Source of the DNA: an uncultured Sphingobacteriaceae bacterium
Lineage (GTDB): Bacteria > Bacteroidota > Bacteroidia > Sphingobacteriales > Sphingobacteriaceae
Length of the DNA stretch: 64,000 nucleotides
Reading direction: 5' to 3'
Assembly: GCA_964444885.1 (NCBI GenBank)
Contig: CAYUIZ010000001.1
Span: forward strand, 27,181-91,180
Position 1 is the stretch's first letter. Every line of letters begins with the position of its first letter. Below the pieces are notes generated by a model, which saw only the letters and a program-made list of their open reading frames with translations, ran no database searches and was not told the DNA's origin. Positions 6,715 through 36,706 of this stretch are shown piece by piece. Both the position numbers and the translations under genes were made by a program.

Positions 6715-7645
6715 CCTTAATGCCTTTGACAAAGTGATGGCTCCCTTTTTCCAAAATTAGGTCGGCGCGAAACCGGGTGGGGAGGATGTTTTGCATCAGG
6801 TTAGGCTTGTTGATTTCGTTCCAGATATCGATAGCCATCGTCCGCGACTCTTCTTCGGACAGGTCGGCATAGCGGTGAAAATAGGAGTCGGGATTTTGAA
6901 ATGCCGTTTGCCGGAGCCATTCGAAGCGTTTAATATACCATTCCAGCAGATTTTTGTGGCTGGCATCCACATAAATCGAATAATCAAAAAAGTCAGATAC
7001 GAATACCCTGGGCCCGTGGTGCTTTCCGGATAAGTTGACCTGCAAAACATTGATGCCTTCGACGATCAGTACGTCAGGGCGAGTCACCCATTGTATCTCG
7101 TCCGGAATAATATCGTACGAGAGGTGGGAATACACCGGTGCCGGCACGCGAGGCTTGCCCGACTTGATGGCCGCCAGAAAGTTGAGCAGTTTGCGCGTGT
7201 CATAACTTTCGGGGAATCCCTTGCGATTGAGGATGCCGCGCTCTTCCAGGTAGCTGTTGGGGTGCAGGAACCCGTCGGTGGTTACCAGTTCTACCTTGGG
7301 GTTGCCGTTTGACAGGGACAATACGCGTTGCAATACCCGGGCGGTGGTACTTTTGCCCGCCGCCACGCTTCCGGCGATACCGATGATGAAAGGCAGCCGT
7401 GCCGTATCGTTGTGAAAAAACGCATCAATGCGTTTGTGGGTCTTTTGGTGGTACTCGATGTGGATCTGCAGCAAGCGACACAGCGGGAAATAGATGTCCT
7501 CAATTTCCTCCATCGTCAGCGGCTCGTTGAGCGCATGCAGTTTGGCCAGGTCGCCCACGGCTATCGGTTGGGACCCGAAGCCGTTCAGCTGCTTCCAAGC
7601 CGCTTTTGACATGCTCCTAAACGGCGAATAGTTTACTGGATCCAT
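6701..7645 (-). CDS. coaA: Type I pantothenate kinase
   Basis: Full-length resemblance to enterobacterial CoaA. P-loop IGIAGSVAAGKSTTARVLQ, plus TTDGFLHPN, KGFPESYD, PVYSH, ILPTR and a terminal VRK. Confidence 0.9.
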   Translation of the reverse strand: MDPVNYSPFRSMSKAAWKQLNGFGSQPIAVGDLAKLHALNEPLTMEEIEDIYFPLCRLLQIHIEYHQKTHKRIDAFFHNDTARLPFIIGIAGSVAAGKSTTARVLQRVLSLSNGNPKVELVTTDGFLHPNSYLEERGILNRKGFPESYDTRKLLNFLAAIKSGKPRVPAPVYSHLSYDIIPDEIQWVTRPDVLIVEGINVLQVNLSGKHHGPRVFVSDFFDYSIYVDASHKNLLEWYIKRFEWLRQTAFQNPDSYFHRYADLSEEESRTMAIDIWNEINKPNLMQNILPTRFRADLILEKGSHHFVKGIKVRKI

Positions 7646-23251: not shown

Positions 23252-24184
23252 ATGACGTTTAAAGCTGGATTTCGTACGCCTATAGTGGCCCTGGACGCAT
23301 CTTCAGGCCCGTATGCGGGTTCAGTGGTACACAATCGCGAGACTTCTTTTCAACTGCTGGTGGCTGACGACATGTTGCCTTTGGAGATCGCGCGTTGGCG
23401 TGGGGATGATGCTTTTGTTTTATCGGTGTACGTATTGGAAGGCGGATGTGTCCTTGTGGGAGCTGGCGAATCGGCGCAGAATTTGTCCGCGGGCGAGCAT
23501 GTTCTTTACCGAGTGCCGATGCTTACGCCGGTCACGGTTGCGCCACACGCTGGAGCCGGTTTTGCGGCAGTCGTCTTTCAGTTTAGCGAGGCTTACCTGT
23601 TGCGGCATTGTCCGGAAAATTGTCCGAACCTGTGTCAATTGACCACCAGTCCCGCAGTTGCGGGTTTACAGGTGTTGGGGTCGGGTACGCCAGCATCCAC
23701 GACCCATGAGCAACGTGCACTCGTGGATCAAATCTGCAGTGCGCCACTGCCCGAACACCTCAAAAGCGTATACCGCGACGTAAAGATCGCGGAGCTGCTC
23801 GTGCTCCAATTGGAGGAAATCCTCTATGGAACGAGGTCCAAATCAGAAGCCGGGCTGCGGGAACACGAGTTGCAGCGGGTCTATCGGGTCCGGGATATTT
23901 TGCGCAATGATCCCAGCCAATCCTACACGCTGCTCGGCTTGGCGCATGAGGTGGGTACCAATGACGCCACCCTGAAAAAGCACTTCAAGCAGGTGTTGAA
24001 CTGTACGGTATTTGCCTACCTGACTTCCTGCCGGATGGCGAGGGCGAAGGAAATGCTAGTCGATGAACGAAAACCGATCGCCGAAATTGCCCAGTGCCTG
24101 GGCTATAAGCACGTGTCGCATTTCTCCGCTTCTTTTCGCAAGTATTACGGCAGTGCGCCGACGAAATTTCTGGAATCCGAATAA
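23252..24184 (+). CDS. AraC family transcriptional regulator
   Basis: C-terminal double HTH (LLGLAHEVGTNDATLKKHFK ... IAEIAQCLGYKHVSHFSASFRKYYG). It is divergent from the TonB receptor gene. Confidence 0.85.
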   Translation: MTFKAGFRTPIVALDASSGPYAGSVVHNRETSFQLLVADDMLPLEIARWRGDDAFVLSVYVLEGGCVLVGAGESAQNLSAGEHVLYRVPMLTPVTVAPHAGAGFAAVVFQFSEAYLLRHCPENCPNLCQLTTSPAVAGLQVLGSGTPASTTHEQRALVDQICSAPLPEHLKSVYRDVKIAELLVLQLEEILYGTRSKSEAGLREHELQRVYRVRDILRNDPSQSYTLLGLAHEVGTNDATLKKHFKQVLNCTVFAYLTSCRMARAKEMLVDERKPIAEIAQCLGYKHVSHFSASFRKYYGSAPTKFLESE

Positions 24185-24198
24185 CGCCAAAGCCAAAA

Positions 24199-26700
24199 TT
24201 ATTCTGCTCGCCGGCGCGGTACGCCCCGTACTGCCTGTGCTACCAAGGGGTCGTCGGGCCAAGCATGCTTGGGGTAGCGGCGCTTGAGTTCCTTCCGCAC
24301 CTCGAAATAGGTTGAATGCCAAAAACTTTCCAAATCCGAGGTCACCTGTACCGGCTTGTATCCCGGCGACAGTAGATGGATGACGAGCGGCGTTTTCCCG
24401 CCGTTGACCCGGGGCGTCTGCAGCAATCCGAAAAGCTCTTGCAAGCGCACCGACAAAATCGGCGGTGCGGCATCCGGGAAGTACTGGATGCGGATGCGCG
24501 AGCCGCTGGGCACCGTGAAATGGCTGGGCGCTAGTTCTTCTAAAGCTTGCTGTCGATCGTAAGGCAGGGCATGGTAAAGGATGTCGCGAATAGGCAGCTG
24601 TTTCAGTTGCTCGGTTTTCTTTATCGTCGTCAGATAAGGTGCCAGCCAGCGCTCGGGGTGGGCCAGCAGCGCAGTCGTCGACACGTCGGGCCAGGCCGCT
24701 TCGGGCTGCCAGGCTCCCAAGCTCAAGATCCGGCATTGGAGCTGCGTGGCGTTTTCGTCAAACGCCAGGAGGCGTTGCCCGTCCTCGCGGATACCTTGGT
24801 ACCAAGCTTGCTGTATTTTTTCGGGGTCGGGATTAGCCAGCGGGCGTTGGTCCACGCGAATGCTCCCTACGCGCGTGACGGTGGCTGCCTGGATTTCTTT
24901 GTGTTGCGAATCCCAGGCAATCGTTGTTTCCTGTGCCGTGAAGTGAGCCAGGTCACCTTGGTCAAGCGCGGCCGCCAAAAAGATGCGCCCGGTTCCCGAG
25001 CGGGCATCCAATAAGGCGACGGCGAGCCAGGGCTCATGCGCCAGCGCATCGGACGCGTCCATTTGCGCCATACGGCCATTGGCCAATTTATACATCCCGT
25101 TGGTACCGGATTGCAGTTGGGCGATTTGCCCCGGGTAGGCGTATGCCAGCAAGCGCCCCGACAGCTTGTTCGGCGAGCTTCCGTTATCTTCTTTCGCACC
25201 GATTAATTTACGGTACGATCGGGCGATGCGCTCGATGTTGTCAAAGCGTTTGCCCTGCGGGTGCTGGCCACGGTGCCTGCGGAGGGCATCGATCCGCAGA
25301 TCGATATCCACCGTTCCGGCTTGATCCAGGGGATCGCGTTCGTCGAGCAGTGCGGCAATGTCCGTGGCCAAGCTAGCCCAGACGGGCTGGTGTTGGCTGC
25401 TGGCTAGCATGTGCGCGATCCGGGGGTGGCAGGGCAGGCCGTTCAGCCGCTTGCCGTGCGCCGTGATTTTATTTTCGTGCAGGGCGCCGATGGACTCCAA
25501 TGTTTCTACGGCCTGGCTCACGCGCCCGGCGGGAGGGGGCGTCAGCCAGGGCAGGGTGCCGATATGGCTAATGCCCCATTGCGCCAAATCAAGCACGGTA
25601 GGGGCCAGGTCGGCGTCCAGTATTTCCGGTTTGCGGTAGGCGGCCAATTGGTGCTGGGTGGCCAGGGTCCACATCCGGTAACAGGTTCCCGCCGCCAAGC
25701 GGCCCGCGCGGCCGGCACGCTGGTCGGCCATGTCAAGGCTCACGCGAACCGTTTTCAGCCGCGAGAGACCAGAGGCGGGGTCAAAGGCCTGCGTGCGCGT
25801 ATACCCCGAATCGACCACAATCCGGATGCCTTCAATGGTCAGGCTGGTTTCGGCGATGGCGGTGGCCAATACCACTTTGCGGCGCCCGGACGGATGCGGC
25901 GTGATTGCCTCCCGTTGTTCGCGGTGCGATAGCCGGCCGTACAAGGGGTGCACGGAAAACAGCGATGCATGGCCCAGTAAGGCTGCTTCGCATTTGCGGA
26001 TTTCGGCCTCGCCAGGCAGAAAGGCCAGCACGTCGCCCGCTTGGGTGCGGGCAGCCTGTAAAATGGCACGTGCGCAGTCGGCTCCGATGTCATACGGATT
26101 CGCGTCGGCAGGCGCGTAGACCAAGTCGACGGGGAAAACCCGGCCTTGGCTTTCCAGGGCGGTAGCGCCCAGCATCTCCGCCAGTTGCTGGCTGTCCATC
26201 GTGGCCGACATCACCAGTAGGCGTAGGTCGGGACGCAACACTTCCTGTGTTTCCCGGCAGAGCAGCAAGGACACTTCGGTGTGGATGCGTCGCTCATGGA
26301 ACTCGTCGAATATCACCAATCCAATACCCTCCAGCGCGTTGTCATCGTGTAGGATACGCGTTAGGATCCCTTCGGTAACGACTTCAATCCGTGTTTTTTT
26401 CGACACTTGCGTTTCAAAGCGGATGCGGTACCCGACGGTTTCACCGGTTTTTTCGCCGAGCAAGGAAGCCATGTGATGGGCGATGCTGCTGGCAGCCAGG
26501 CGGCGGGGTTCCAGCATGATGATTTTCTTGCCGGCGAGCCAGGGCTCGTCGAGAAGCAACAAAGGTAATAAGGTGCTCTTGCCCGCACCCGGGGGCGCGG
26601 AGAGCACCAACGTGTTCGCCGCCGATAACCGTTGTTTGATTTCCGGAACGACGGCCTGTATCGGTAATTCGATAGCGCTTAAATCGCGACTGGATGCCAT
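24199..26700 (-). CDS. hrpB: ATP-dependent RNA helicase HrpB (DEAH box)
   Basis: Motifs: APPGAGKST, DEFHER, SATM, TAIAETSLTIEG, QRAGRAGR. The HrpB-type C-terminal domain is present. 833 aa. Confidence 0.9.
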   Translation of the reverse strand: MASSRDLSAIELPIQAVVPEIKQRLSAANTLVLSAPPGAGKSTLLPLLLLDEPWLAGKKIIMLEPRRLAASSIAHHMASLLGEKTGETVGYRIRFETQVSKKTRIEVVTEGILTRILHDDNALEGIGLVIFDEFHERRIHTEVSLLLCRETQEVLRPDLRLLVMSATMDSQQLAEMLGATALESQGRVFPVDLVYAPADANPYDIGADCARAILQAARTQAGDVLAFLPGEAEIRKCEAALLGHASLFSVHPLYGRLSHREQREAITPHPSGRRKVVLATAIAETSLTIEGIRIVVDSGYTRTQAFDPASGLSRLKTVRVSLDMADQRAGRAGRLAAGTCYRMWTLATQHQLAAYRKPEILDADLAPTVLDLAQWGISHIGTLPWLTPPPAGRVSQAVETLESIGALHENKITAHGKRLNGLPCHPRIAHMLASSQHQPVWASLATDIAALLDERDPLDQAGTVDIDLRIDALRRHRGQHPQGKRFDNIERIARSYRKLIGAKEDNGSSPNKLSGRLLAYAYPGQIAQLQSGTNGMYKLANGRMAQMDASDALAHEPWLAVALLDARSGTGRIFLAAALDQGDLAHFTAQETTIAWDSQHKEIQAATVTRVGSIRVDQRPLANPDPEKIQQAWYQGIREDGQRLLAFDENATQLQCRILSLGAWQPEAAWPDVSTTALLAHPERWLAPYLTTIKKTEQLKQLPIRDILYHALPYDRQQALEELAPSHFTVPSGSRIRIQYFPDAAPPILSVRLQELFGLLQTPRVNGGKTPLVIHLLSPGYKPVQVTSDLESFWHSTYFEVRKELKRRYPKHAWPDDPLVAQAVRGVPRRRAE

Positions 26701-27026: not shown

Positions 27027-27986
27027 ATGTCAATAAAGTTGTTGTTTGTCCCCCTGTTGCTGTTGGGGACAAGTACCGCGCAGACCTCATTTGAAGGATA
27101 CACCCAGGATATTCCCGGTACAGAAGTTCAGTTTGCGATGGCGGCTATTCCCGCCGGCACCTATCAGCGGGGGAGCGAATCCGGTAATCCGGATGAGTAT
27201 CCGGTGCATGACGTATCGCTGGATGCCTTTTGGATAGGTACCCACGAGGTGACTTGGGATTTGTTCGAATTATTCCTTTATAAAGCACATGAGCAAAATG
27301 CGACGGAAGGGGAAATTCCGGCCGAAGTAGACGCCATTACCCGGCCTACCAAGCCATATTTGGACATGACCTACGGAATGGGCAAGGAAAACCACCCCGC
27401 GCTCTCCATGACGCAGTTCAACGCCATTCAATTTTGCCGGTGGCTGTATGTCAAAACCGGGGTGTTCTACCGCTTGCCTACCGAGGCGGAGTGGGAGTAC
27501 GCTTGCCGCGCGGGCACGACCACGGCATACAGCTTTGGCGACGATCCAGCTAGCCTGGATGACTATGCCTGGTACCGGGGCAATAGCGGTAACCGCACCC
27601 AACCGGTAGGGCAGAAGAAACCCAATCCTTGGGGGGTATATGACATGCACGGTAACGTCGCTGAATGGACCTTCGACCAGTATGCACCCGATACGTACGA
27701 ACGCTACGCGGTGGCGGGCGCGGACAATCCGGTAGAAGTGCCCACTGAGTTGTACCCGAACGTGGTGCGGGGCGGTTCGTTTGAGGACGCGGCAGAAGCC
27801 CTGCGCTCCGCGGCGAGAGGTGCGTCGGATCCTTCGTGGAAGCAACTCGATCCGCAGATTCCCAAGAGCAATTGGTGGTTTCCCGAGGCACCCTTTGTCG
27901 GCATTCGCTTAGTGCGGCCAGCCGTCGCTCCATCCCCAGAAGAAATTGATGCTTACTACAATGTGAGCCCCATTGCGGATTACTAG
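27027..27986 (+). CDS. Secreted FGE-sulfatase-domain (SUMF1/EgtB/PvdO family) protein
   Basis: Sec signal MSIKLLFVPLLLLGTSTAQ. Motifs: RLPTEAEWEYACRAG, HGNVAEW, VVRGGSF. Confidence 0.85.
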   Translation: MSIKLLFVPLLLLGTSTAQTSFEGYTQDIPGTEVQFAMAAIPAGTYQRGSESGNPDEYPVHDVSLDAFWIGTHEVTWDLFELFLYKAHEQNATEGEIPAEVDAITRPTKPYLDMTYGMGKENHPALSMTQFNAIQFCRWLYVKTGVFYRLPTEAEWEYACRAGTTTAYSFGDDPASLDDYAWYRGNSGNRTQPVGQKKPNPWGVYDMHGNVAEWTFDQYAPDTYERYAVAGADNPVEVPTELYPNVVRGGSFEDAAEALRSAARGASDPSWKQLDPQIPKSNWWFPEAPFVGIRLVRPAVAPSPEEIDAYYNVSPIADY

Positions 27987-28042
27987 CATACCGCAATGCG
28001 ATAATTGTTGCAAACCAATAACAAACGAATAGAAAAGAAAAC

Positions 28043-29359
28043 ATGAAAAACGAGTTTCAACGTATTCCCAGGCGCGATTTCCTGAAGAAGTCAGCGGTTG
28101 TTGCTGGCGCTACGGCATTCACTACTTTGCCCTTCGGTGCCCATTCTAACGTCGACGACACGATCAAGGTGGCCTTGGTAGGTTGCGGAGGCCGCGGCAC
28201 AGGCGCAGCTTTCGACGCGATCGCAGCGCATCCTCGCGTCAAAATCGTCGCTTTGGCTGACGCGTTTCGCGATGCAGTTGACAATGTTTACAAGGTGCTG
28301 TCGGAGCGCCATGCGGACCGCATTGATATCCCCGAGGACCACAAGTTCTCTGGATTCGAAGGGTACAAGCAGGCCATCGCATTAGCGGACGTCGTGTTGC
28401 TTTGTACGCCTCCGGGCTTCCGGCCGATGCAGTTTGAGGAAGCCGTGAAGCAAGGCAAGCACGTATTCATGGAGAAACCCGTAGCGGTGGACGTGCCCGG
28501 CGTGCGCAAGGTGTTGGCTGCGGCGGAATTAGCCAAGCAGAAGCGCCTCAATGTCGTGGTCGGGTTGCAACGCCGTTACCAAGCGGTGTACCGCGATACG
28601 ATCCAACGTATTCAAGACGGTGCCATTGGCGACATCGTTTCCGGGCAAGTGTATTGGAATAGCGGCGGCGTTTGGGTTCGCCCGCGCACGGCTGGCCAAA
28701 CAGAAATGGAATATCAGATGCGTAATTGGTACTACTTCAACTGGCTGTGCGGCGACCACATCGTGGAGCAACACGTGCACCAGATTGACGTAGCGAACTG
28801 GGTGAAAGGTGCGTATCCGGTATCATTCCAAGGAACGGGAAGCCGTGCCTGGCGTACCGGCAAGGAGCATGGCGAGATTTATGATAACCACGCCGTGGAG
28901 TTAACCTATGCGGATGGGTCGGTCATTTACAGCCAATGCCGTCACTTTGAGGGAACCTCTAACCGCGTGGATGAGACTTTCCAGGGTACAAACGGCCGGG
29001 TATTCCTGTCTGCGTCAAACGATGGCGTGCTGTGGGACCGCAAAGGAAACGAGCTGTACAACCATCCGAAGCGGAACAATGCCAACCCCTACCAGCACGA
29101 GCATGTCGAGCTCTTCGATGCGATCAGTAAAGGCGATTTTCGTCATTCAGACGGCGAGTATGGCGCGCTGAGCACGCTTACCGGCGTCATCGGACGATTG
29201 GCTACCTACTCGGGCCGTGTCATTACGTGGGACGAAGCGCTCAATTCGAATATCGATCTCCTGCCGGAGCGTCTCGCTTGGGATGCCCTGCCTAAGGTAT
29301 TGCCGAATCAGGACGGCTACTATCCGTATGCGGTTCCCGGCCAAACGGTCGTCATCTAA
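28043..29359 (+). CDS. TAT-exported Gfo/Idh/MocA family oxidoreductase
   Basis: Twin-arginine signal PRRDFLKKSAVVAGATA. Rossmann loop VALVGCGGRG, the FMEKP motif, and a C-terminal alpha/beta domain. Confidence 0.85.
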   Translation: MKNEFQRIPRRDFLKKSAVVAGATAFTTLPFGAHSNVDDTIKVALVGCGGRGTGAAFDAIAAHPRVKIVALADAFRDAVDNVYKVLSERHADRIDIPEDHKFSGFEGYKQAIALADVVLLCTPPGFRPMQFEEAVKQGKHVFMEKPVAVDVPGVRKVLAAAELAKQKRLNVVVGLQRRYQAVYRDTIQRIQDGAIGDIVSGQVYWNSGGVWVRPRTAGQTEMEYQMRNWYYFNWLCGDHIVEQHVHQIDVANWVKGAYPVSFQGTGSRAWRTGKEHGEIYDNHAVELTYADGSVIYSQCRHFEGTSNRVDETFQGTNGRVFLSASNDGVLWDRKGNELYNHPKRNNANPYQHEHVELFDAISKGDFRHSDGEYGALSTLTGVIGRLATYSGRVITWDEALNSNIDLLPERLAWDALPKVLPNQDGYYPYAVPGQTVVI

Positions 29360-29414
29360 ATCGGGAGGAAATCTCTTGCGGATACGGAGCACGACGGCGA
29401 AGCGATTAGGGGGG

Positions 29415-30422
29415 ATGGCGTGGCTTTGGCTGGCGTTTGCCGGCGCGGTGTGGGCCAATCCGCCAAACTCGGATTGGTCCACCCATACGATCCGTGGGCA
29501 GGCACAAGGCACGACCTATCAGATCAGCTACTATGCCGACACGCCCCTGATCCGGCGCGCATCCATCGACAGTATCGTCACGGTCATCGACCGATCGATG
29601 TCGCTCTATCAGGCGCAATCGATGATCAGCCGGTTTAACGACAGTACGGAAACCCGTATGGTGCTCGACCCGCATTTTAAGGCCGTGGTGCAAAAATCCT
29701 TTGAAATATACCGCTGTAGTGGCGGTATTTTCGATGTAACGGTAGCGCCTTTGGTCGATTTGTGGGGATTCGGCCCCGTGCCTCAGCAATCCTTGCCCGA
29801 CCGCCGTGCCGTCGAAGAAGCGCTAGCCTGCGTGGGAATGGACAAGCTCCAGCTGCGTGGCGATACGCTCGTGAAAGCCGAGCAATGCGTGCGTGTCGAT
29901 CTCAACGGCATTGCCCAGGGCTACACGGTCGATGTCATTGCCGGCTTCTTGGAAAGCCAGCGTGTCGGTCATTACGTAGTCGAGCTGGGTGGTGAGTTGC
30001 GCGTGCGGGGTCCTAAGCCGGACGGATCACCGTTGCGGATTGGTATCGAACGGCCCGTGGCACATGGGGGAGCGGGATTGATGCAGGACGTGCTAGCCAT
30101 TAACGAAGGCTCGGTGACGACGGCAGGCAACTACCGCAAGTTTATCGAGGACGACGGAAAGACACTTTCGCACCACATCGATCCGAAAACCGGCTATCCG
30201 TTCCAGTCGGGGATCATTAGCGCGACGCTGTATGCGCCTGACGCGATGACGGCCGACGGATACGACAACGTCATCATGGCGATGGAGCCCGACGAAGCTA
30301 TCGCATTTGTTGACAGGCTGCCGGGGCTAGAGGTGTTCATTATTTACGCGGCCGAAGACGGCAAAACGGAAGAGCGCATGAGTGCTGGGTTTCACCGGCT
30401 TTTGGCTAACGCAGAAAACTAG
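29415..30422 (+). CDS. apbE: FAD:protein FMN transferase (ApbE family)
   Basis: Signal-like N-terminus MAWLWLAFAGAVWA, then GTTYQISYY, FDVTVAPL, DLNGIAQGY, TTAGNYRKF, SHHIDPKTG. An in-frame TTG at 29376 is an alternative start. The ORF's 5' extension to 29217 overlaps the upstream gene and is not credible. Confidence 0.85.
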   Translation: MAWLWLAFAGAVWANPPNSDWSTHTIRGQAQGTTYQISYYADTPLIRRASIDSIVTVIDRSMSLYQAQSMISRFNDSTETRMVLDPHFKAVVQKSFEIYRCSGGIFDVTVAPLVDLWGFGPVPQQSLPDRRAVEEALACVGMDKLQLRGDTLVKAEQCVRVDLNGIAQGYTVDVIAGFLESQRVGHYVVELGGELRVRGPKPDGSPLRIGIERPVAHGGAGLMQDVLAINEGSVTTAGNYRKFIEDDGKTLSHHIDPKTGYPFQSGIISATLYAPDAMTADGYDNVIMAMEPDEAIAFVDRLPGLEVFIIYAAEDGKTEERMSAGFHRLLANAEN

Positions 30423-30476
30423 CGGTTTGCGTCGTCTTGATGACAGGTTGCAAGCCGCCAATTTATAAACATTCAA

Positions 30477-31418
30477 ATGGACCAAAACATGAAAAGAGGA
30501 CAATTTATCAAGCAATCCCTATTGGCGACCGGTGCGGTGATGGGCGCATCCCAATTGGGTGCATTCGCAGGTGAAGCATCAGGCCAGGCTCCCGCCGCAG
30601 GCGAGCCGTTCAAACTGAAATATGGCCCGCACCAAGGGCAATTTTCCGCCCATGCGGGAAACAATGTATTAGACCAGATCCAGTTCGCGTACGACCAGGG
30701 ATTCCGCGGTTGGGAGGACAATGGCTTCTCCGGTCGATCGACGGAAGAACAGGACAAAGTAGGCAATTTGCTGGCCAAGCTGGGAATGGAAATGGGGGTG
30801 TTCGTACTCGACAAAGGCGGGAACGGCGCGAATTCCTTGGCGGCCGGAAAGCAGGAGCATATTGATGTCTTTTTGAAGGGATGCCGGCAGGCGGTGGAGC
30901 TTTCCAAGCGTGCCGGCGGCAAGTTCACGACGGTGGTTCCCGGCGATTTTACCCGGCATTTGCCGTTGGACATCCAGACGGCCAACGTAATTGACGCACT
31001 ACGTCGCGGAGCCGAAATTTTGGAGCCGCATGGCATCGTCATGGTCCTCGAACCGCTCAGCGACACACCCGATTTATTCCTGCGCACATCCACCCAAACC
31101 TACCTGATCTGCCGCGGCGTCAATAGTCCGTCCTGCAAGATTTTGTACGACGTGTACCATTTGCAACGCAACGAAGGCGATCTGATTCCAAACATGGAGC
31201 GCTGCTGGAGCGAAATTGCTTATATTCAAGTAGGAGATAACCCAGGCCGCCGCGAACCGACGACGGGCGAAATCAATTATAAAAATTTGTTTAAGTACCT
31301 GTACGACAAAGGATACACGGGCGTGGTGGGCATGGAGCACGGCAAGTCACAAGGCGGCAAGGAAGGCGAGATGAGGTTGATTGAGGCGTACCGCGAGGTG
31401 GATAGTTTCGTGGTGTAA
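30477..31418 (+). CDS. Exported sugar-phosphate isomerase/epimerase-fold (xylose-isomerase-like TIM barrel; hydroxypyruvate-isomerase-like) protein
   Basis: TAT-like signal MKRGQFIKQSLLATGAVMGASQLGAFA. Motifs: LEPL, YDVYH, IQVGDNPGRREP, GMEHG. Confidence 0.8.
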   Translation: MDQNMKRGQFIKQSLLATGAVMGASQLGAFAGEASGQAPAAGEPFKLKYGPHQGQFSAHAGNNVLDQIQFAYDQGFRGWEDNGFSGRSTEEQDKVGNLLAKLGMEMGVFVLDKGGNGANSLAAGKQEHIDVFLKGCRQAVELSKRAGGKFTTVVPGDFTRHLPLDIQTANVIDALRRGAEILEPHGIVMVLEPLSDTPDLFLRTSTQTYLICRGVNSPSCKILYDVYHLQRNEGDLIPNMERCWSEIAYIQVGDNPGRREPTTGEINYKNLFKYLYDKGYTGVVGMEHGKSQGGKEGEMRLIEAYREVDSFVV

Positions 31419-31554
31419 ACCCAAGGTAGATGTGCGCTCAGGCTGTGCAGGACGGGAATATTTTGCAGGTTTTTATTTTGCAGTATTGGTAAATAAAGCC
31501 CATCTTAGACACGGATTTGTATCCATAAAACCCGTTTCTATTTAAGCGATTTAC

Positions 31555-32805
31555 ATGAATAAAATAACCCGATCAAAACTGTCCTTCATGATGTTCCTCG
31601 AATTTTTTATTTGGGGAGCGTGGTTTGTCACCCTAGGAACATACCTAGCACAGAACCTGAATGCATCCGGCTTGGAGACGGCTAATGTCTTCTCCACCCA
31701 ATCCTGGGGCGCGATCATCGCGCCTTTTATCATCGGCCTCATCGCCGATCGGTATTTCAATGCCGAGCGAATCCTCGGCGTACTGCACTTGGTGGGCGCC
31801 GTCCTCATGTACCAACTGTACCGGGCGCCTGACGTAGGGGTTTTCTATCCATATGTCTTGGGGTACATGATACTTTATATGCCGACGTTGGCGTTGGTCA
31901 ACTCCGTTTCCTTCCGGCAGATGAAAGATCCCGAAAAGGAGTTTTCAGTCATTCGGGTATGGGGAACCATCGGCTGGATCGTTGCCGGTTTGTCGATCAG
32001 CTACCTCTTTAAATGGGATTCGGGCGAGGGGCTCTTGCGCAATACCTTCCTGATGGCTAGCGTGGCTTCCGTCGTATTGGGTTTATTTAGTTTCTTTTTG
32101 CCCAAAACGCCTCCCGTCAAACAAGACACGAACGAAAAGAAAAGCATCTCGGAGATGTTGGGCTTGGACGCCATCAAGTTGCTGAACGACCGGAACTTTT
32201 TTATTTTCTTTGCTTCCTCTATACTGATTTGCGTGCCGCTGGCGTTTTATTATCAAAACGCTAACCTGTTTTTAACGGAGGTGGGTTTGGAAAACCCCAC
32301 GGGCAAGATGACCATCGGACAGATCTCCGAAGCATTTTTCCTCCTGTTGTTGCCGGTGTTTTTCACCCGATACGGCTTTAAGTGGACGATTTTGCTGGGT
32401 ATGCTGGCTTGGACGTTTCGGTATGTGCTGTTTGCGTATGGCAATGCCGGCGAACTGACGTTCATGCTCATTACCGGTATCGCACTGCATGGCATCTGCT
32501 TCGACTTCTTTTTCGTATCCGGCCAGATTTATACCGACGCGAAAGCAGGCGCTCGATACAAGAGTTCGGCACAAGGCCTCATTACCTTGGCGACGTACGG
32601 CATCGGGCAGCTGATTGGTTTTTGGGTGGCAGGATACGTCACCGAATATTACGCTGCAGTGCGCAATACAAGCTTGGGCCAGTTTTGGCAGCAGGTTTGG
32701 CTCGTGCCGGCGGTCATCGCGTTTGTGGTGATGCTGATTTTCCTGGTGCTCTTTAAGGACGAGCGGAACAGGAAAGTTCAGGAGGCCGATACGACCAATG
32801 GATAA
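31555..32805 (+). CDS. MFS nucleoside:H+ symporter family permease (NupG/XapB-like)
   Basis: N-terminus LSFMMFLEFFIWGAWFVTLGTYL is typical of the family. 12 predicted TM helices. Confidence 0.75.
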   Translation: MNKITRSKLSFMMFLEFFIWGAWFVTLGTYLAQNLNASGLETANVFSTQSWGAIIAPFIIGLIADRYFNAERILGVLHLVGAVLMYQLYRAPDVGVFYPYVLGYMILYMPTLALVNSVSFRQMKDPEKEFSVIRVWGTIGWIVAGLSISYLFKWDSGEGLLRNTFLMASVASVVLGLFSFFLPKTPPVKQDTNEKKSISEMLGLDAIKLLNDRNFFIFFASSILICVPLAFYYQNANLFLTEVGLENPTGKMTIGQISEAFFLLLLPVFFTRYGFKWTILLGMLAWTFRYVLFAYGNAGELTFMLITGIALHGICFDFFFVSGQIYTDAKAGARYKSSAQGLITLATYGIGQLIGFWVAGYVTEYYAAVRNTSLGQFWQQVWLVPAVIAFVVMLIFLVLFKDERNRKVQEADTTNG

Positions 32806-32908
32806 TCCGGACGTAGGACAACATTTGGTAAAACCTTACGTCATTATAATAATACGGCTTGCAAAAGCACGAATAAATACAACGACGAGTTAACTTAGAT
32901 AAAAGACA

Positions 32909-34588
32909 ATGGCAGACAATGTGTACGATGCAATCGTCATCGGATCTGGCGTGAGTGGTGGATGGGCCGCCATGGAACTCACGAAAAAGGGGCTGAAGAC
33001 CATCATGCTCGAGCGTGGACGCAACGTGGAGCACGTGAAGGATTACCCGGCGGCTACCAAGCATCCGTGGGAATTTCCCCACCGCGGCGGGCGCACCCAG
33101 CAAATGATTGAAGACTACCCGGTTTTGCGGCGGGATTACCCGCTTAACGAGAAAAACCTCGACTTCTGGGTGAATGAAAAAGAAAGTCCATATACCGAAG
33201 TAAAGCGATTTGACTGGTACCGGGGCTACCACGTGGGCGGCCGGTCACTCACTTGGGGCCGGCAGAGCTATCGTCTCGGCGATTTGGATTTCGAAGCTAA
33301 CGTCAAGGACGGACATGGCATCGACTGGCCAATCCGCTATAAGGATATCGCGCCTTGGTACAGCTATGCGGAGCGCTGGGCCGGTATCAGCGGCAACCGC
33401 GACGGCTTGGACGTATTGCCCGACGGCGACTTCCTGCCACCGATGCCGATGAACGTCGTTGAAAAAGACCTGGCCGCGCGCATCAAGCAGCACTATGGCG
33501 GCAAGCGTCATTTCATCATGGGGCGTGTTGCCAACCTTACCGTACCGCACGAGAACCGTATTAACTGCCAGTTCCAAAGCCAATGCTGGCTGGGCTGTAA
33601 TTTCGGGGCCTATTTCAGTACGCAATCCTCTACCTTGCCAGCGGCTGTCGCCACCGGCAACTTGACACTGCGTCCGTTCTCCATCGTCACGCGTATTCTC
33701 TACGATAAAGACACCAAGAAAGCAACCGGCGTCGAGATTATTGATGCCGAAAACAACCAGACGTACGAATACCACGCCAAGGTTGTGTTCGTGTGCGCGT
33801 CGGCGTTCAATTCCACTTGGATTCTGTTCAATTCGGCCACCGACGTGTGGGAAGGCGGACTGGGCAGCAGCAGTGGAGAGCTGGGGCACAATGCCATGGA
33901 CCACCATTTTCGCTGTGGTGCCGGCGGGCGCGTAGAAGGATACGAAGATAAGTATCTCTACGGCAGACGACCAACAGGCCTGTATATTCCGCGTTTCAGA
34001 AACGTGGGTAACGACAAACGCGACTATGTACGCGGTTTCGGCTACCAAGGCGCGGCTAGCCGTGGCCGTTGGAGCGGCGAAGTGGCTGAGATGAGCGTAG
34101 GAGGCGACTGGAAAGACGCTATGTGCGAACCCGGTAGCTGGAACGTGGGCTTTACAGCCTTCGGCGAGATCTTGCCCTATCACGAAAACCGGATTTTCCT
34201 GGACAAGGACACGAAAGACAAATGGGGGCTGCCCGTGCTGGCGATGGACATGGAGATCAAGGAAAACGAGACCAAGATGCGGACTGACATGATGGAGGAC
34301 TGCAAGGAAATGCTCGAATCCGCCGGTGTGAAAGACGTGTACACCTATGACAACGGATACGCCTTCGGGATGGGTATCCACGAGATGGGTACGGCCCGCA
34401 TGGGACGCGACCCCAAAACCTCGGTGCTCAACGGCAACAACCAAGTGTGGGACGCGCCAAACGTGTTCGTGACGGATGGTGCGGCCATGACGTCGGGCGG
34501 ATGCGTCAACCCGTCGCTCACCTATATGGCCATGACTGCGCGAGCGGCTGATTTTGCCGTGAGCGAACTGAAGAAGGGCAATTTGTAA
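32909..34588 (+). CDS. GMC family FAD-dependent oxidoreductase; no signal peptide
   Basis: FAD Rossmann motif YDAIVIGSGVSGGWAA at the extreme N-terminus. A GMC C-terminal region is present (HEMGTARMG, VTDGAAMTSG). Confidence 0.88.
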   Translation: MADNVYDAIVIGSGVSGGWAAMELTKKGLKTIMLERGRNVEHVKDYPAATKHPWEFPHRGGRTQQMIEDYPVLRRDYPLNEKNLDFWVNEKESPYTEVKRFDWYRGYHVGGRSLTWGRQSYRLGDLDFEANVKDGHGIDWPIRYKDIAPWYSYAERWAGISGNRDGLDVLPDGDFLPPMPMNVVEKDLAARIKQHYGGKRHFIMGRVANLTVPHENRINCQFQSQCWLGCNFGAYFSTQSSTLPAAVATGNLTLRPFSIVTRILYDKDTKKATGVEIIDAENNQTYEYHAKVVFVCASAFNSTWILFNSATDVWEGGLGSSSGELGHNAMDHHFRCGAGGRVEGYEDKYLYGRRPTGLYIPRFRNVGNDKRDYVRGFGYQGAASRGRWSGEVAEMSVGGDWKDAMCEPGSWNVGFTAFGEILPYHENRIFLDKDTKDKWGLPVLAMDMEIKENETKMRTDMMEDCKEMLESAGVKDVYTYDNGYAFGMGIHEMGTARMGRDPKTSVLNGNNQVWDAPNVFVTDGAAMTSGGCVNPSLTYMAMTARAADFAVSELKKGNL

Positions 34589-34623
34589 GATAGCTATTCA
34601 CTGGATAAATGTAAATTATAATT

Positions 34624-36066
34624 ATGAAAGACTCGGATAACAAAAAGGACGGTACTAGCCGGCGCAATTTTCTCAAAACCAGTGCGGCAGCTTCGGCTGG
34701 CTTCATGATTATGCCCCGGCACGTGCTGGGCGGTGCGGGTTACACAGCGCCGAGCGACAAGCTGGTCATCGCAGGCATTGGCGTAGGAGGCAAAGGCGCG
34801 TCTGACTTGACGTCATTCCACGACAGCGGCAAAGCTGACATTGCTTTCCTGTGCGATGTGGACGATGCGCGGGCGGCGAATACAGTCAAGCGTTTCCCTA
34901 AGGCCAAGTACTACCGCGATTTCCGCGAAATGCTCGATAAAGAACACAAGCATATCGATGCGGTATCGGTGTCGGGTCCAGACCACAACCACGCGGCCCA
35001 TGCCTTGCCCGCGATGGAACTGGGCAAGCACGTGTACGTGCAGAAGCCGTTGACGAAAGATGTGTGGGAGGCCCGCGTGCTTACCCATGCCGCCAAAAAG
35101 TATAAGGTGGTCACCCAAATGGGCAACCAAGGTGCCTCCGGCGAGGGCGTGCGCATTATGCGCGAATGGATAGATGCTGGCCTTATCGGCGACGTGCACA
35201 CTATCTACGGATGGACGGACCGTCCGGTATGGCCCCAAGGTATCGCATGGCCTGACCGCAAAGCGGCTGTGCCTTCGACGCTCGACTGGGATCTGTGGCT
35301 GGGTACCGCACCCTACGTGGACTATATCGACAAGCTCGTTCCGTTCAACTGGCGGGGCTGGTGGGATTACGGAACCGGTGCCTTGGGGGATATGGGATGT
35401 CACATTATGGAAGCACCCTTCAGCATCCTCGGCCTGCAGTACGTGAAAGACGTGCAAGCTACGGTTGGCTCGGTCTACGTAGACGAATTTAAGCGCGGGT
35501 ATTTCCCGCAAAGCTGCCCACCGTCGAGCTACGCGGTCATGACCTTCCCGAAGACCGACAAAACCGCTGGCGATGTGAAGATTCACTGGATGGATGGCGG
35601 CATACAGCCTGAGCGTCCGGAAGAACTCGGACCGAATGAGATTTTTGGCGACGGTGGCAACGGTATCATGTTTGTCGGAACCAAAGGCAAGATCTTGGCG
35701 GATTGCTATGCCGAGAATCCTCGGCTGTTACCTACATCGCTGTCAGAGGTGGTGAAGGTGCCCCAAAAATACGCACGCGTGCCGCAAGGCCATTATGCAC
35801 AATGGGTGGAAGCTTGTATTGCCGGATACGGCAATATGGAAGTCAGCGCGCCGTTTGAGATTTCAGGACCACTGACCGAGGCTTTGCTCATGGCAAACCT
35901 GGCCGTCCGCGGCTCTGACATGCGCATCGACGGCAGGTACCCGGGCAAGAACCTGAAATTGCTGTGGGACAACGACAACATGAGGGTGACTAACTTTGAC
36001 GAGGTGAACCAGTTCGTAAAACGCGAATACCGCAAAGGCTGGGACATCAAGTATAATTTTTCATAG
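34624..36066 (+). CDS. TAT-exported Gfo/Idh/MocA family oxidoreductase (long, ~480-aa type)
   Basis: Twin-arginine signal SRRNFLKTSAAASAGFMI. Rossmann loop IAGIGVGGKG, YVQKP motif, GALGDMGCH. Confidence 0.85.
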   Translation: MKDSDNKKDGTSRRNFLKTSAAASAGFMIMPRHVLGGAGYTAPSDKLVIAGIGVGGKGASDLTSFHDSGKADIAFLCDVDDARAANTVKRFPKAKYYRDFREMLDKEHKHIDAVSVSGPDHNHAAHALPAMELGKHVYVQKPLTKDVWEARVLTHAAKKYKVVTQMGNQGASGEGVRIMREWIDAGLIGDVHTIYGWTDRPVWPQGIAWPDRKAAVPSTLDWDLWLGTAPYVDYIDKLVPFNWRGWWDYGTGALGDMGCHIMEAPFSILGLQYVKDVQATVGSVYVDEFKRGYFPQSCPPSSYAVMTFPKTDKTAGDVKIHWMDGGIQPERPEELGPNEIFGDGGNGIMFVGTKGKILADCYAENPRLLPTSLSEVVKVPQKYARVPQGHYAQWVEACIAGYGNMEVSAPFEISGPLTEALLMANLAVRGSDMRIDGRYPGKNLKLLWDNDNMRVTNFDEVNQFVKREYRKGWDIKYNFS

Positions 36067-36084
36067 GAATATAGCAACAGTGCC

Positions 36085-36654
36085 ATGAATAGAAGAGAAG
36101 CGATTAGCCGCGTAGCCTGGATCATGGGGGGTACCGTTATCGGTGCCAACCTCCTGCTGGAGGGATGTACCCGGCCGGCCACGCCAACCGTAGAGGGTCT
36201 GTTTGACCCAACGATGGTCGATTTTATGGGTGATGTGGCGGAAACGATCTTGCCGGAGACGAGCAGCCCGGGTGCTAAGGCCGCCGGTGTAGGCGAGTTT
36301 ATGCCGGTGATGGTCAAGGACTGTTACACCGCGGAGGATCAAGATGTATTCGTTAAGGGCCTGGCGCAGATCGACGAGCGTGCGCAGGAAGCGCACGGGA
36401 AGAAGTTTCAAGAACTGACCGCCGCGGAGCGAACGGACTTGCTTAACACGATTGATAAGGAAGCCAAAGCCTATCACAGTTCCAAAGAGCCGGACGCGCC
36501 GAACCATTACTTCCACCTATTCAAGCAATTGACGTTGCTCGGTTTCTTTACCTCCGAAGTGGGCGCGACCCAAGCCCTGCGCTATGTGCAGGTGCCCGGG
36601 CGTTTTGACGGGGAATATCCGTACCAAAAAGGGGATAAAGCCTGGGCTACGTAA
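36085..36654 (+). CDS. Gluconate 2-dehydrogenase subunit 3-like small TAT protein (partner of GMC flavoproteins)
   Basis: 189 aa. Twin-arginine N-terminus MNRREAISRVAWIMGGTVIGANLLLEGC. Ends with the typical FFTSEVGATQALRY. The family call is from memory. Confidence 0.7.
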   Translation: MNRREAISRVAWIMGGTVIGANLLLEGCTRPATPTVEGLFDPTMVDFMGDVAETILPETSSPGAKAAGVGEFMPVMVKDCYTAEDQDVFVKGLAQIDERAQEAHGKKFQELTAAERTDLLNTIDKEAKAYHSSKEPDAPNHYFHLFKQLTLLGFFTSEVGATQALRYVQVPGRFDGEYPYQKGDKAWAT

Positions 36655-36674: not shown

Positions 36675-36706
36675 AAGCCGGATGGGGATGACCCATTCGG
36701 CTTTTT
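36675..36706 (+). terminator. Terminator hairpin closing block A (between convergent genes)
   Basis: aagccggatggg / gatga / cccattcggctt (one G-U), followed by ttttt. Confidence 0.65.

Follow-up and report, generated by a model that had tools for sequence, protein, structure and literature searches.

Oxidation followed by elimination and hydration is a recently recognized alternative to the classical glycosidases, and a very broad one that covers α- and β-glycosides, thioglycosides and acarbose. Here we compare the closest described systems with a block of eight genes, g1 to g8, found on the + strand at positions 27027–36654 of a 64-kb stretch of DNA from an uncultured Sphingobacteriaceae bacterium (64,000 nucleotides of contig CAYUIZ010000001.1, hereafter the window). 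In the AL1–AL4/BT2156–BT2160 pathway the first step is taken by AL3/BT2158, a Gfo/Idh/MocA (hereafter Gfo) enzyme that is exported by twin-arginine translocation (TAT), holds nicotinamide adenine dinucleotide (NAD) tightly and oxidizes glycosides at C3 (10.1101/2024.03.25.586180; PMC8121099). The AL1-like lyase and DUF1080 proteins of the pathway act only on 3-keto-glycosides, and the exported Gfo dehydrogenase cannot exchange NAD(H); the authors used a 3-keto-sugar co-substrate as a bypass and raised the possibility of dedicated re-oxidizing proteins (10.1101/2024.03.25.586180). In the lacABC/DUF1080 clusters of Caulobacter, and in Pedobacter, the dehydrogenase is required for the use of lactose, salicin and raffinose (PMC9007349). 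A third kind of system is flavinylation by ApbE, for which the main text of a survey gives D-x-x-(S/T)-G-A-(S/T) as the canonical acceptor motif and describes minor ApbE substrates as still unidentified (PMC8238504).

The eight open reading frames (ORFs), the gaps between them (56, 16 or 55, 54, 136, 103, 35 and 18 nt from g1 to g8) and the terminator at 36675 are present as an initial annotation of the window had described them. Pfam scans, run on the eight genes of the block and on 30 further ORFs of the window, assign g1 to FGE-sulfatase, g2 and g7 to Gfo/Idh/MocA, g3 to ApbE, g4 to AP_endonuc_2, g5 to Nuc_H_symport, g6 to the N- and C-terminal GMC domains and g8 to Gluconate_2-dh3. Six of the products carry export signals, again in agreement with that annotation. 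The TAT signals of g2 and g7 exceed the TIGR01409 cut-off, and those of g4 ([KNRQ]R[ST]xF[IL]K) and g8 (NRREA) are missed by the hidden Markov models and kept in all orthologues; the N-termini of g1 and g3, read by eye, are of the Sec type. What is novel in the block is the fusion of a cytochrome-less GMC/AL3 oxidation module to a conserved module of FGE-fold, Gfo, ApbE and TIM-barrel proteins. Also new is a wider link between a clade of ApbE proteins and exported Gfo dehydrogenases.

The reading that we favor, and hold to be moderately probable, is that in Sphingobacteriaceae two modules have been fused into a conserved block that resembles an operon, in which a periplasmic glycoside oxidation unit (module B) would be joined to a unit that handles keto-sugars (module A). 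The GMC large subunit g6, with flavin adenine dinucleotide (FAD) and a 3Fe–4S cluster, would be assembled in the cytoplasm as a LacA/LacB-type dehydrogenase and carried through the TAT system by its small lipoprotein subunit g8. The AL3/BT2158-type enzyme g7, with its tightly bound NAD, would work beside g6/g8, and the two would oxidize the sugar ring of a glycoside in the periplasm, most likely at C3. A product would be imported by the YegT-like proton symporter g5. Module A would be an independent unit of the periplasm that most likely processes the keto-sugars, reducing or oxidizing them and isomerizing or epimerizing them, and probably relies on covalent flavin mononucleotide (FMN) installed by ApbE. 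The AL1-type and DUF1080 steps and the cytochrome c acceptor would be supplied from elsewhere in the genome. If this is correct, aerobic soil Bacteroidota assemble the same chemistry from swappable parts: a GMC/FeS or a Gfo dehydrogenase, a cytochrome c or an ApbE module, and varied TIM barrels.

Conservation and modular make-up of the block

We followed the block in two sets of loci. A scan based on ApbE alignments, with one genome per species, gave 80 loci plus one contig of Parapedobacter indicus, in which relatives of all eight proteins were located; a second scan, in which metagenome contigs were searched with the GMC protein g6, gave 47 loci with enough flank. Nine species of Sphingobacterium, among them S. 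faecium DSM 11690 (L062), have the complete order from g1 to g8. Bacterium A37T11 (L028) has the same eight-gene order with an extra TIM-barrel gene between g5 and g6, and this extra barrel (L028:13288–14052) is Hyi-like, the type seen in canonical LacABC-like clusters. Parapedobacter has the order of the window minus g7. The genes g1-g2-g3-g4 occur alone in about 20 Pedobacter species, including the randomly barcoded transposon-sequencing (RB-TnSeq) strain GW460-11-11-14-LB5 (L084; CP021237.1, 3,529,679–3,533,957); Pontibacter has g1-g2-g3 with g4 inverted, and three species have g1-g2-g3 only. Among the metagenome loci, the full eight-gene set is present in 17 of 47, all in the window order when listed locus by locus, seven genes with g7 missing in 6, and a set lacking ApbE in 2. 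The other loci contain g6 and g8 only (13), g5, g6 and g8 (5), g6-g7-g8 (2), g5-g8 (1) or g6 only (1). ApbE identity across the full-block loci goes down to about 40–50%, and the eight-gene order is not due to chance.

The initial annotation had presented the block as a single eight-gene system. Its order does recur, and it is at the same time a fusion of separable parts, since each module occurs alone and g7 is missing in Parapedobacter: module A consists of g1–g4, module B of g5, g6 and g8, and g7 is a mobile insert located between the genes for the large and small GMC subunits. Wherever the two modules occur apart, the break falls at the position of the spacer between g4 and g5 (31419–31554, + strand). 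This spacer of 136 nt contains two near-identical TATTTTGCAG copies, 10 nt apart and exactly at the join of the modules, which could represent a promoter or an operator.

Separability raises the question of whether modules A and B are merely neighbors, i.e. a lineage-specific juxtaposition of two unrelated transcription units inherited vertically within one family. Module A alone in about 20 Pedobacter and Pontibacter species, the 22 of 47 metagenome loci without module A, a largest gap that falls, with its promoter-like repeats, exactly at the boundary, and the coming and going of g7 itself would all fit such a juxtaposition. We nevertheless consider it unlikely. From Sphingobacterium through Parapedobacter to the window lineage the two modules stay joined on one strand and across short gaps, although ApbE has diverged to 40–58% identity, and our terminator scan called no terminator-like site in the g4–g5 spacer. 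Canonical clusters place functionally linked redox and TIM-barrel genes beside the permease–GMC unit, and in three loci of the Agriterribacter type ApbE is found near a pair of GMC and small-subunit genes.

The window proteins are closest to those of Parapedobacter, Olivibacter, Pedobacter and Sphingobacterium. Because ApbE of the nearest GTDB species is merely 58% identical, the window lineage is a member of the Sphingobacteriaceae without a close sequenced species representative; one metagenome contig (L088) carries the same eight genes at 76–95% identity. The initial annotation had suggested testing the conservation of the neighborhood across Bacteroidota and Planctomycetota; it holds for the former (10 GTDB species and 17/47 metagenome loci) but does not reach the Planctomycetota-type relatives of g2. 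Such distant relatives on three long contigs, one of them from Thermoguttaceae, are stand-alone genes in 3/3 cases, so that the triad of g1, g2 and ApbE is a Bacteroidota feature, and these relatives do not allow it to be traced beyond that phylum.

The AL3-type enzyme g7 and the GMC dehydrogenase

The clearest counterpart of a described pathway enzyme is g7 (34624–36066, + strand, 480 aa), a predicted TAT-exported homologue of the AL3/BT2158-type glycoside 3-dehydrogenases. It aligns with the AL3 structures 8tdf (E = 3.2e-101, query residues 39–460) and 8tdh (E = 3.4e-97). In the 8tdf alignment (chain offset 29), Gln161, Arg192, Trp195, Asp248, His252 and Tyr349 of AL3, from the list of substrate and NAD residues in the AL3 preprint (10.1101/2024.03.25.586180), are 6/6 identical in g7, where they sit in GNQGAS, DRPVWPQG, GDMGCH and DCYAENP. 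The NCBIfam family nearest to g7, NF058561 (BT_2158_fam), bears the name glycoside 3-dehydrogenase. As its score of 483.8 bits lies below the equivalog cut-off of 750 bits, g7 is best classified from its sequence as a member of the AL3/BT2158 family and not as a close orthologue. Its TAT motif is SRRNFLK; TIGR01409 recognizes the signal (18.5 bits versus a cut-off of 16.7), and the Pfam TAT_signal score falls just short (22.1 versus 22.7). The likeness to the AL/BT pathway (10.1101/2024.03.25.586180; PMC8121099) thus comprises full-length homology of g7 to AL3/BT2158, the six active-site residues, the periplasmic setting and a tightly bound, non-exchangeable nicotinamide cofactor. The differences are that g7 is nested between GMC subunit genes and scores under the BT_2158 cut-off, and that the block lacks an AL1-type lyase, a DUF1080 lyase/hydratase, a cytoplasmic AL4-type Gfo and a SusR/DUF6377 regulator. 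Among the Pfam-scanned window proteins there is no AL1-type lyase or DUF1080 protein alongside g7, and g4 is not AL1-like.

The large subunit of the GMC flavoprotein dehydrogenase, g6 (32909–34588, + strand, 559 aa), matches PF00732 and PF05199. It has no signal peptide and begins directly with the FAD-binding GxGxxG motif. The protein aligns over its full length with the large subunit of fructose dehydrogenase (FDH) 7w2j (3e-33) and also with the FAD-glucose dehydrogenase (FAD-GDH) 6a2u. It keeps the catalytic His and a C-x5-C-x3-C motif, in which NCQFQSQCWLGC aligns with CCGNNNCMPIC of FDH 7w2j; we take these cysteines to be 3Fe–4S ligands, as in 6a2u and 7w2j. In g6 a Thr stands in place of the His to which FAD is covalently bound in FDH and FAD-GDH. 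An FAD glucoside 3-dehydrogenase of about 62 kDa has reportedly been purified from an S. faecium strain, which we mention as an unconfirmed lead only.

The partner of g6 is g8 (36085–36654, + strand, 189 aa), a small "hitch-hiker" subunit of the Gluconate_2-dh3 family (PF13618, 135 bits) whose TAT signal is directly followed by a lipobox (LLEGC). Both NRREA and the L(F/L)LEGC lipobox, which lie in its N-terminus (36085–36180), are kept in g8 and all 13 orthologues. g8 is accordingly annotated as a putative TAT-exported lipoprotein, and the g6/g8 complex is probably lipid-anchored; the lipobox could anchor the GMC enzyme without a cytochrome subunit. The architecture of a GMC flavoprotein with a small TAT subunit, which the initial annotation had recognized, is borne out by g6/g8 and the three presumed cluster cysteines.

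Orthologues of g6/g8 at 70–75% identity occur in a shared arrangement in at least nine contigs. On one side are genes for a cytochrome c of 125 aa, a cytoplasmic TIM barrel and a cytoplasmic Gfo, divergently transcribed; on the other side are an MFS/YegT-like permease, a TAT-exported Hyi-like TIM barrel (m2), the GMC protein, the small subunit, a second TAT-exported TIM barrel (m8) and a DUF4440 protein. DUF1080 genes lie near the g6/g8 orthologues in 14 loci. The second barrel matches 8tcd, 8tcs and 8tct at 1e-36, and from the AL3 deposit series and the name "sugar phosphate isomerase" of these entries we infer that they are the AL1/BT1 3-keto-β-glucoside lyases. Because the orthologue clusters carry an AL1-like barrel, DUF1080 genes and a LacABC-type layout, the assignment of module B to the 3-ketoglycoside pathway family is supported, and we infer that g6/g8 would act at C3 of the glycoside. 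Together, the AL3 residues of g7, the architecture of g6/g8 and these clusters make periplasmic glycoside oxidation, as proposed in the initial annotation, well founded.

The comparison with LacABC (PMC9007349) is drawn via the orthologue clusters and the solved FDH and FAD-GDH (7w2j, 6a2u). Common to these systems are a GMC protein without signal peptide, the 3Fe–4S Cys triad and a TAT-exported Gluconate_2-dh3 subunit, and in the window, as in the LacABC systems, transporter, TIM-barrel and Gfo genes adjoin g6/g8. Unlike LacABC and FDH, the window block has no cytochrome c, g8 has a lipobox, and the covalent-FAD His of FDH is lost. The position that cytochrome c, TIM barrel and Gfo genes occupy in the canonical clusters is taken by module A in the window. 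The extra Hyi-like barrel of bacterium A37T11 suggests that the window-type block was derived from a LacABC-like cluster by loss.

Module B also includes g5 (31555–32805, + strand, 416 aa), an MFS permease of the nucleoside:H+ symporter family and of the YegT subtype. The alignment with YegT (8zoj, 2.6e-96) is far stronger than that with NupG (7dl9, 2.7e-58), and the TIGR00889 score of 368.6 bits lies under the cut-off of 446.1. The protein keeps GxxxD in transmembrane helix 10 (HGICFD) and a Glu in helix 8 aligned to Glu255 of YegT, corresponding to the proton-coupling motif and Glu of the NHS family (PMC11979927). The initial annotation had proposed that a product is imported through a NupG-type permease; the import of a nucleoside-like product is not supported. 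No substrate is known for YegT, the closer relative of g5, and "nucleoside permease" is therefore an unsafe and misleading name for g5.

Module A, ApbE and exported Gfo enzymes

Module A begins with g1 (27027–27986, + strand, 319 aa), a Sec-exported protein with the FGE/PvdO fold (PF03781, 152 bits). Its best relatives in the PDB are the variable surface protein 2y3c of T. denticola (Treponema), PvdO 5hha and PorK/GldK, and its best NCBIfam match is PvdO, with 93 bits versus a cut-off of 500 bits. No Cys is found within the final 120 residues in 119 of 120 homologues. It is in this C-terminal region that we presume, from human FGE, the catalytic Cys pair to lie, and none of the Pfam-scanned window proteins has a sulfatase domain. 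By sequence g1 would therefore not be a formylglycine-generating enzyme, and the label "FGE family protein" is misleading. A loop, VDA(V/I)TRPTKPY, is kept in 116/120 homologues, and the tail of g1 is DPQIPKSNWWFPEAPF. With PvdO and the other non-catalytic FGE-fold proteins (5hha, PorK/GldK, 2y3c) g1 shares a periplasmic FGE fold without the copper-binding Cys pair; it differs from PvdO and PorK/GldK in that its locus has no pyoverdine or type IX secretion context and in having its own loop and DPQIPKSNWWFPEAPF tail. An AlphaFold2 model of g1 built with 16 homologues was unusable (mean pLDDT 35). In all 36 loci, g1 co-occurs with g2 and ApbE.

The second gene, g2 (28043–29359, + strand), encodes a TAT-exported Gfo/Idh/MocA oxidoreductase of 438 aa that matches PF01408, PF22725 and PF02894. 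Its family is large, with 935 clusters at 50% identity (E ≤ 1e-30), and uncharacterized, and g2 has weak PDB matches and no close characterized relative. TAT-like signals are found in 108 of the 123 full-length family representatives and the flavinylation motif in none of them (0/123). A search for Rosetta-stone fusions of the family returned caspase-domain fusions only, which are uninformative on the roles of g1, g3 and g4. In P0317, P0349 and P0381, representatives of 50%-identity clusters, a g2-type Gfo is fused to a C-terminal caspase (Peptidase_C14), an unexpected pairing.

The last gene of the module, g4 (30477–31418, + strand), encodes an exported TIM barrel (PF01261) with a TAT-like signal of the KR type; it is xylose-isomerase-like and of the same type as the hydroxypyruvate/2-oxo-tetronate isomerases. 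In NCBIfam, Hyi and OtnI come closest, each below its cut-off. Against the PDB, a profile of g4 orthologues finds 3ngf, YgbM/OtnI 1k77, ketose 3-epimerases and the 3-keto-glucoside 4-epimerase YcjR 6wn6; AL1/BT1 and C-glycoside lyases are absent from the hits at E ≤ 0.01. Among the barrels of the LacABC-like clusters, the Hyi-like m2 shares 26% identity with g4 (E 1e-15), and the AL1-like m8 shows no similarity to it. The profile search and the lack of similarity to m8 rule out g4 as a lyase of a known type, and the elimination of the aglycone by this barrel, as put forward in the initial annotation, is not supported; by sequence g4 is an isomerase- or epimerase-like protein that should not carry the name of a lyase. 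As all these TIM barrels stabilize an enediolate beside a carbonyl, lyase activity of g4 is still conceivable, although it is not what the sequence suggests. The scanned window proteins include no AL1-type barrel, no DUF1080 protein and no cytoplasmic pair of a Gfo and a TIM barrel, and known types of lyase or hydratase are missing in and beside the block; the enzymes for elimination and hydration must therefore come from elsewhere in the genome.

Between g2 and g4 lies the gene for g3, an ApbE-family FAD:protein FMN transferase (29376–30422, + strand; PF02424, 261 bits) that by its sequence would be a standard ApbE. The deposited gene model begins at TTG 29376, which leaves a 16-nt gap to g2 and gives a protein of 348 aa; from ATG 29415 it would have 335 aa. 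In the 348-aa reading the N-terminus is charged and then hydrophobic, as in Sec signals, and an identical 348-aa protein is on record (P0001). TTG 29376 is most likely the start. In 33 of 36 loci of this type ApbE lies between g2 and g4, with 16-nt or overlapping junctions. Two metagenome loci of one lineage, L127 and L129, have the order g1-g2-g4-g5-g6-g7-g8 with about 270 bp (7346–7599) in the place of ApbE, so ApbE is not always retained in cis.

The acceptor of FMN is less readily found in the block itself. No conserved [S/T]GA[S/T] flavinylation motif is present in any of the eight proteins. The C-terminal VGAT of g8 was rejected as a site (orthologues have VGMT, LGLT or IGMK), as was VAGAT of g2, which lies in the h-region of the TAT signal and is not conserved. 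A Gfo of the g2/Gfo-F sequence cluster is present in 62 of 81 typed loci. In 23 loci there is a different TAT-exported Gfo, of 400–420 aa, with an invariant VDGV(T/S)GAT, and in 20 of the 23 it is at most three genes from ApbE. The motif lies within a 22-residue insertion of this sister family, which g2 lacks. Hosts include Niastella, Flavitalea, Segetibacter, Dyadobacter, Hymenobacter, some Pedobacter and Mucilaginibacter, among others (for example L033:1588–2790 in Niastella caeni and L043:8781–9998 in Dyadobacter, with L052, L057, L029, L053, L047 and 16 more loci). In the Chitinophagales loci, a gene for a tandem DUF1080 protein (3-keto-disaccharide hydrolase) comes after that of the motif-bearing Gfo. 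In two further loci (L042:8312–9709 and L078) the gene directly upstream of ApbE encodes a lipoprotein that combines GFO_IDH_MocA with Oxidoreduct_C (PF16490) and has QGSGAT a few residues past the lipobox Cys; it may represent a second architecture of flavinylated oxidoreductase.

Judged from these motifs and gene positions, the motif-bearing TAT-Gfo proteins appear to be an undescribed class of ApbE substrates. The flavinylation survey does not mention Gfo/MocA proteins in its main text (PMC8238504). In the literature searched we found nothing on ApbE with Gfo/Idh/MocA, formylglycine, xylose isomerase, GMC or twin-arginine, and a 2025 Bacteroidota fitness preprint mentions none of the block genes. 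The initial remark that an FGE-like protein combined with ApbE matches no described system thus holds within that literature. Common to the systems of the survey and to the loci described here are an exported ApbE within a cluster of exported redox proteins and, in the sister loci, the canonical motif on a neighbor; the differences are that this neighbor is a Gfo/Idh/MocA protein and that the window block would be an "orphan" apbE context by the terms in the survey's main text (PMC8238504).

It is possible, if doubtful, that ApbE is a housekeeping flavin transferase, serving for example Nqr or flavoproteins elsewhere, and that the block contains no flavinylated protein. The canonical motif is absent from the eight proteins and from the ±10 kb in loci of the same type, except in L023 (Pedobacter), where a motif-bearing Gfo lies 8 kb from the ApbE locus. 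L127 and L129 keep the other seven genes with no ApbE in the block, and the ApbE tree mostly tracks taxonomy. Such a role is hard to square with the placement of ApbE between g2 and g4 in 33/36 loci, within three genes of an invariant-motif TAT-Gfo in 20 others, and beside the lipoprotein Gfo with an N-terminal SGAT in two more, which is not what a random location would give. In the tree, the Pedobacter ApbEs encoded beside motif-bearing Gfo genes do not group with the main Pedobacter clade, a hint of two ApbE paralogues. The location of ApbE is probably not accidental, and it might act in trans on proteins whose genes lie elsewhere.

Redox balance is the unsolved point of the 3-keto pathway, and the link between ApbE and Gfo enzymes, if true, offers a directly testable answer to how the cofactor is re-oxidized and adds a substrate class for ApbE. 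A tethered FMN would give exported Gfo enzymes a route for the electrons of their non-exchangeable NADH. In the most specific form of this idea, module A would be a flavin electron outlet for exported, NAD-locked sugar dehydrogenases, with g1 as a non-canonical FMN carrier that acts in trans, and would replace the cytochrome c of LacABC; in the sister lineages, ApbE would place FMN on a surface loop (VDGVTGAT) of the exported Gfo. We regard this as improbable. The loop VDA(V/I)TRPT of g1, in which the T of RPT is Thr108, matches VDGVTGAT at 5/8 positions, with Arg-Pro in place of Gly-Ala, and a role of g1 as FMN carrier is by itself very unlikely in our estimate.

Free sugars as substrates, and the flanks of the block

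The enzymes of the block might act on free polyols, monosaccharides or nucleosides, with no glycosidic bond cut. g6/g8 would then be a dehydrogenase of the gluconate, fructose or sorbitol type, g2 would be a periplasmic dehydrogenase of inositols or aldoses, g4 would isomerize or epimerize ketoses, and g5 would import a nucleoside or a keto-sugar. The nearest named relatives of g2 are indeed inositol 2-dehydrogenases (TIGR04380, 70 bits; PDB 4n54, 4e-12), and those of g4 are hydroxypyruvate and 2-oxo-tetronate isomerases and ketose 3-epimerases. The closest solved relatives of g6 act on fructose C5 or glucose C1, and the regiospecificity of GMC/FeS dehydrogenases is unreadable from sequence. 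g5 belongs to the nucleoside symporter family (PF03825, "Nucleoside H+ symporter", 374 bits), and the block has no lyase or hydratase. These findings weigh against the glycoside-oxidizing fusion that we favor, as do the score of g7 below the BT_2158 cut-off, the missing flavinylation motif and the loss of ApbE in L127 and L129. To them we add that no regulator or c-type cytochrome lies within or adjoining the block, that no CxxCH ORF of at least 100 aa occurs anywhere in the 64-kb window, and that a second promoter within the 136-nt spacer could break the predicted co-transcription.

Action on free sugars alone is in our view distinctly unlikely. Every residue that holds the glucoside in AL3 is kept in g7, the orthologues of g6/g8 co-localize with genes for AL1-like lyases and DUF1080 proteins, and g5 resembles YegT more than NupG and scores under the cut-off for nucleoside permeases. 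Oxidation of glycosides by module B, linked to keto-sugar handling by module A, therefore remains the reading that we prefer.

The block is closed by a terminator-like hairpin (36675–36703, + strand) with a 12-pair stem (7 G–C) followed by TTTTTCG. No other site of this kind in the region is as strong; overall, terminator-like sites are not enriched (15 versus 12.5 ± 4.4 in shuffles). The hairpin sits between convergent genes and could serve both. Flanking the block are hrpB upstream and an M28 peptidase gene downstream, both on the − strand, and there is no SusC/D pair in the block or beside it. Rfam gave zero families at gathering score in or near the block, for riboswitches or other RNAs. 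A scan for sigma-70-type promoters was set aside, as the consensus is uninformative for Bacteroidota; an exact TAnnTTTG occurs upstream of g1 as a single copy, 250 nt distant.

Two further features of the window were noted. The hrpB gene region (24001–26000) has a G+C content of 0.61, compared to 0.52–0.56 in its surroundings. A separate + strand cluster (40679–60804) follows a divergent AraC regulator. Its products include an FGGY kinase, a fucose-isomerase-like protein, an SSF symporter, a DUF3748 protein, a DHDPS-family lyase and a PhoPQ_related protein, together with two purple acid phosphatases, a GDPD protein, an HGSNAT-like acyltransferase and two proteins of the BNR/sialidase-like kind. 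The cluster resembles a locus for the breakdown of some phosphorylated or acidic sugar and seems to have no relation to the block.

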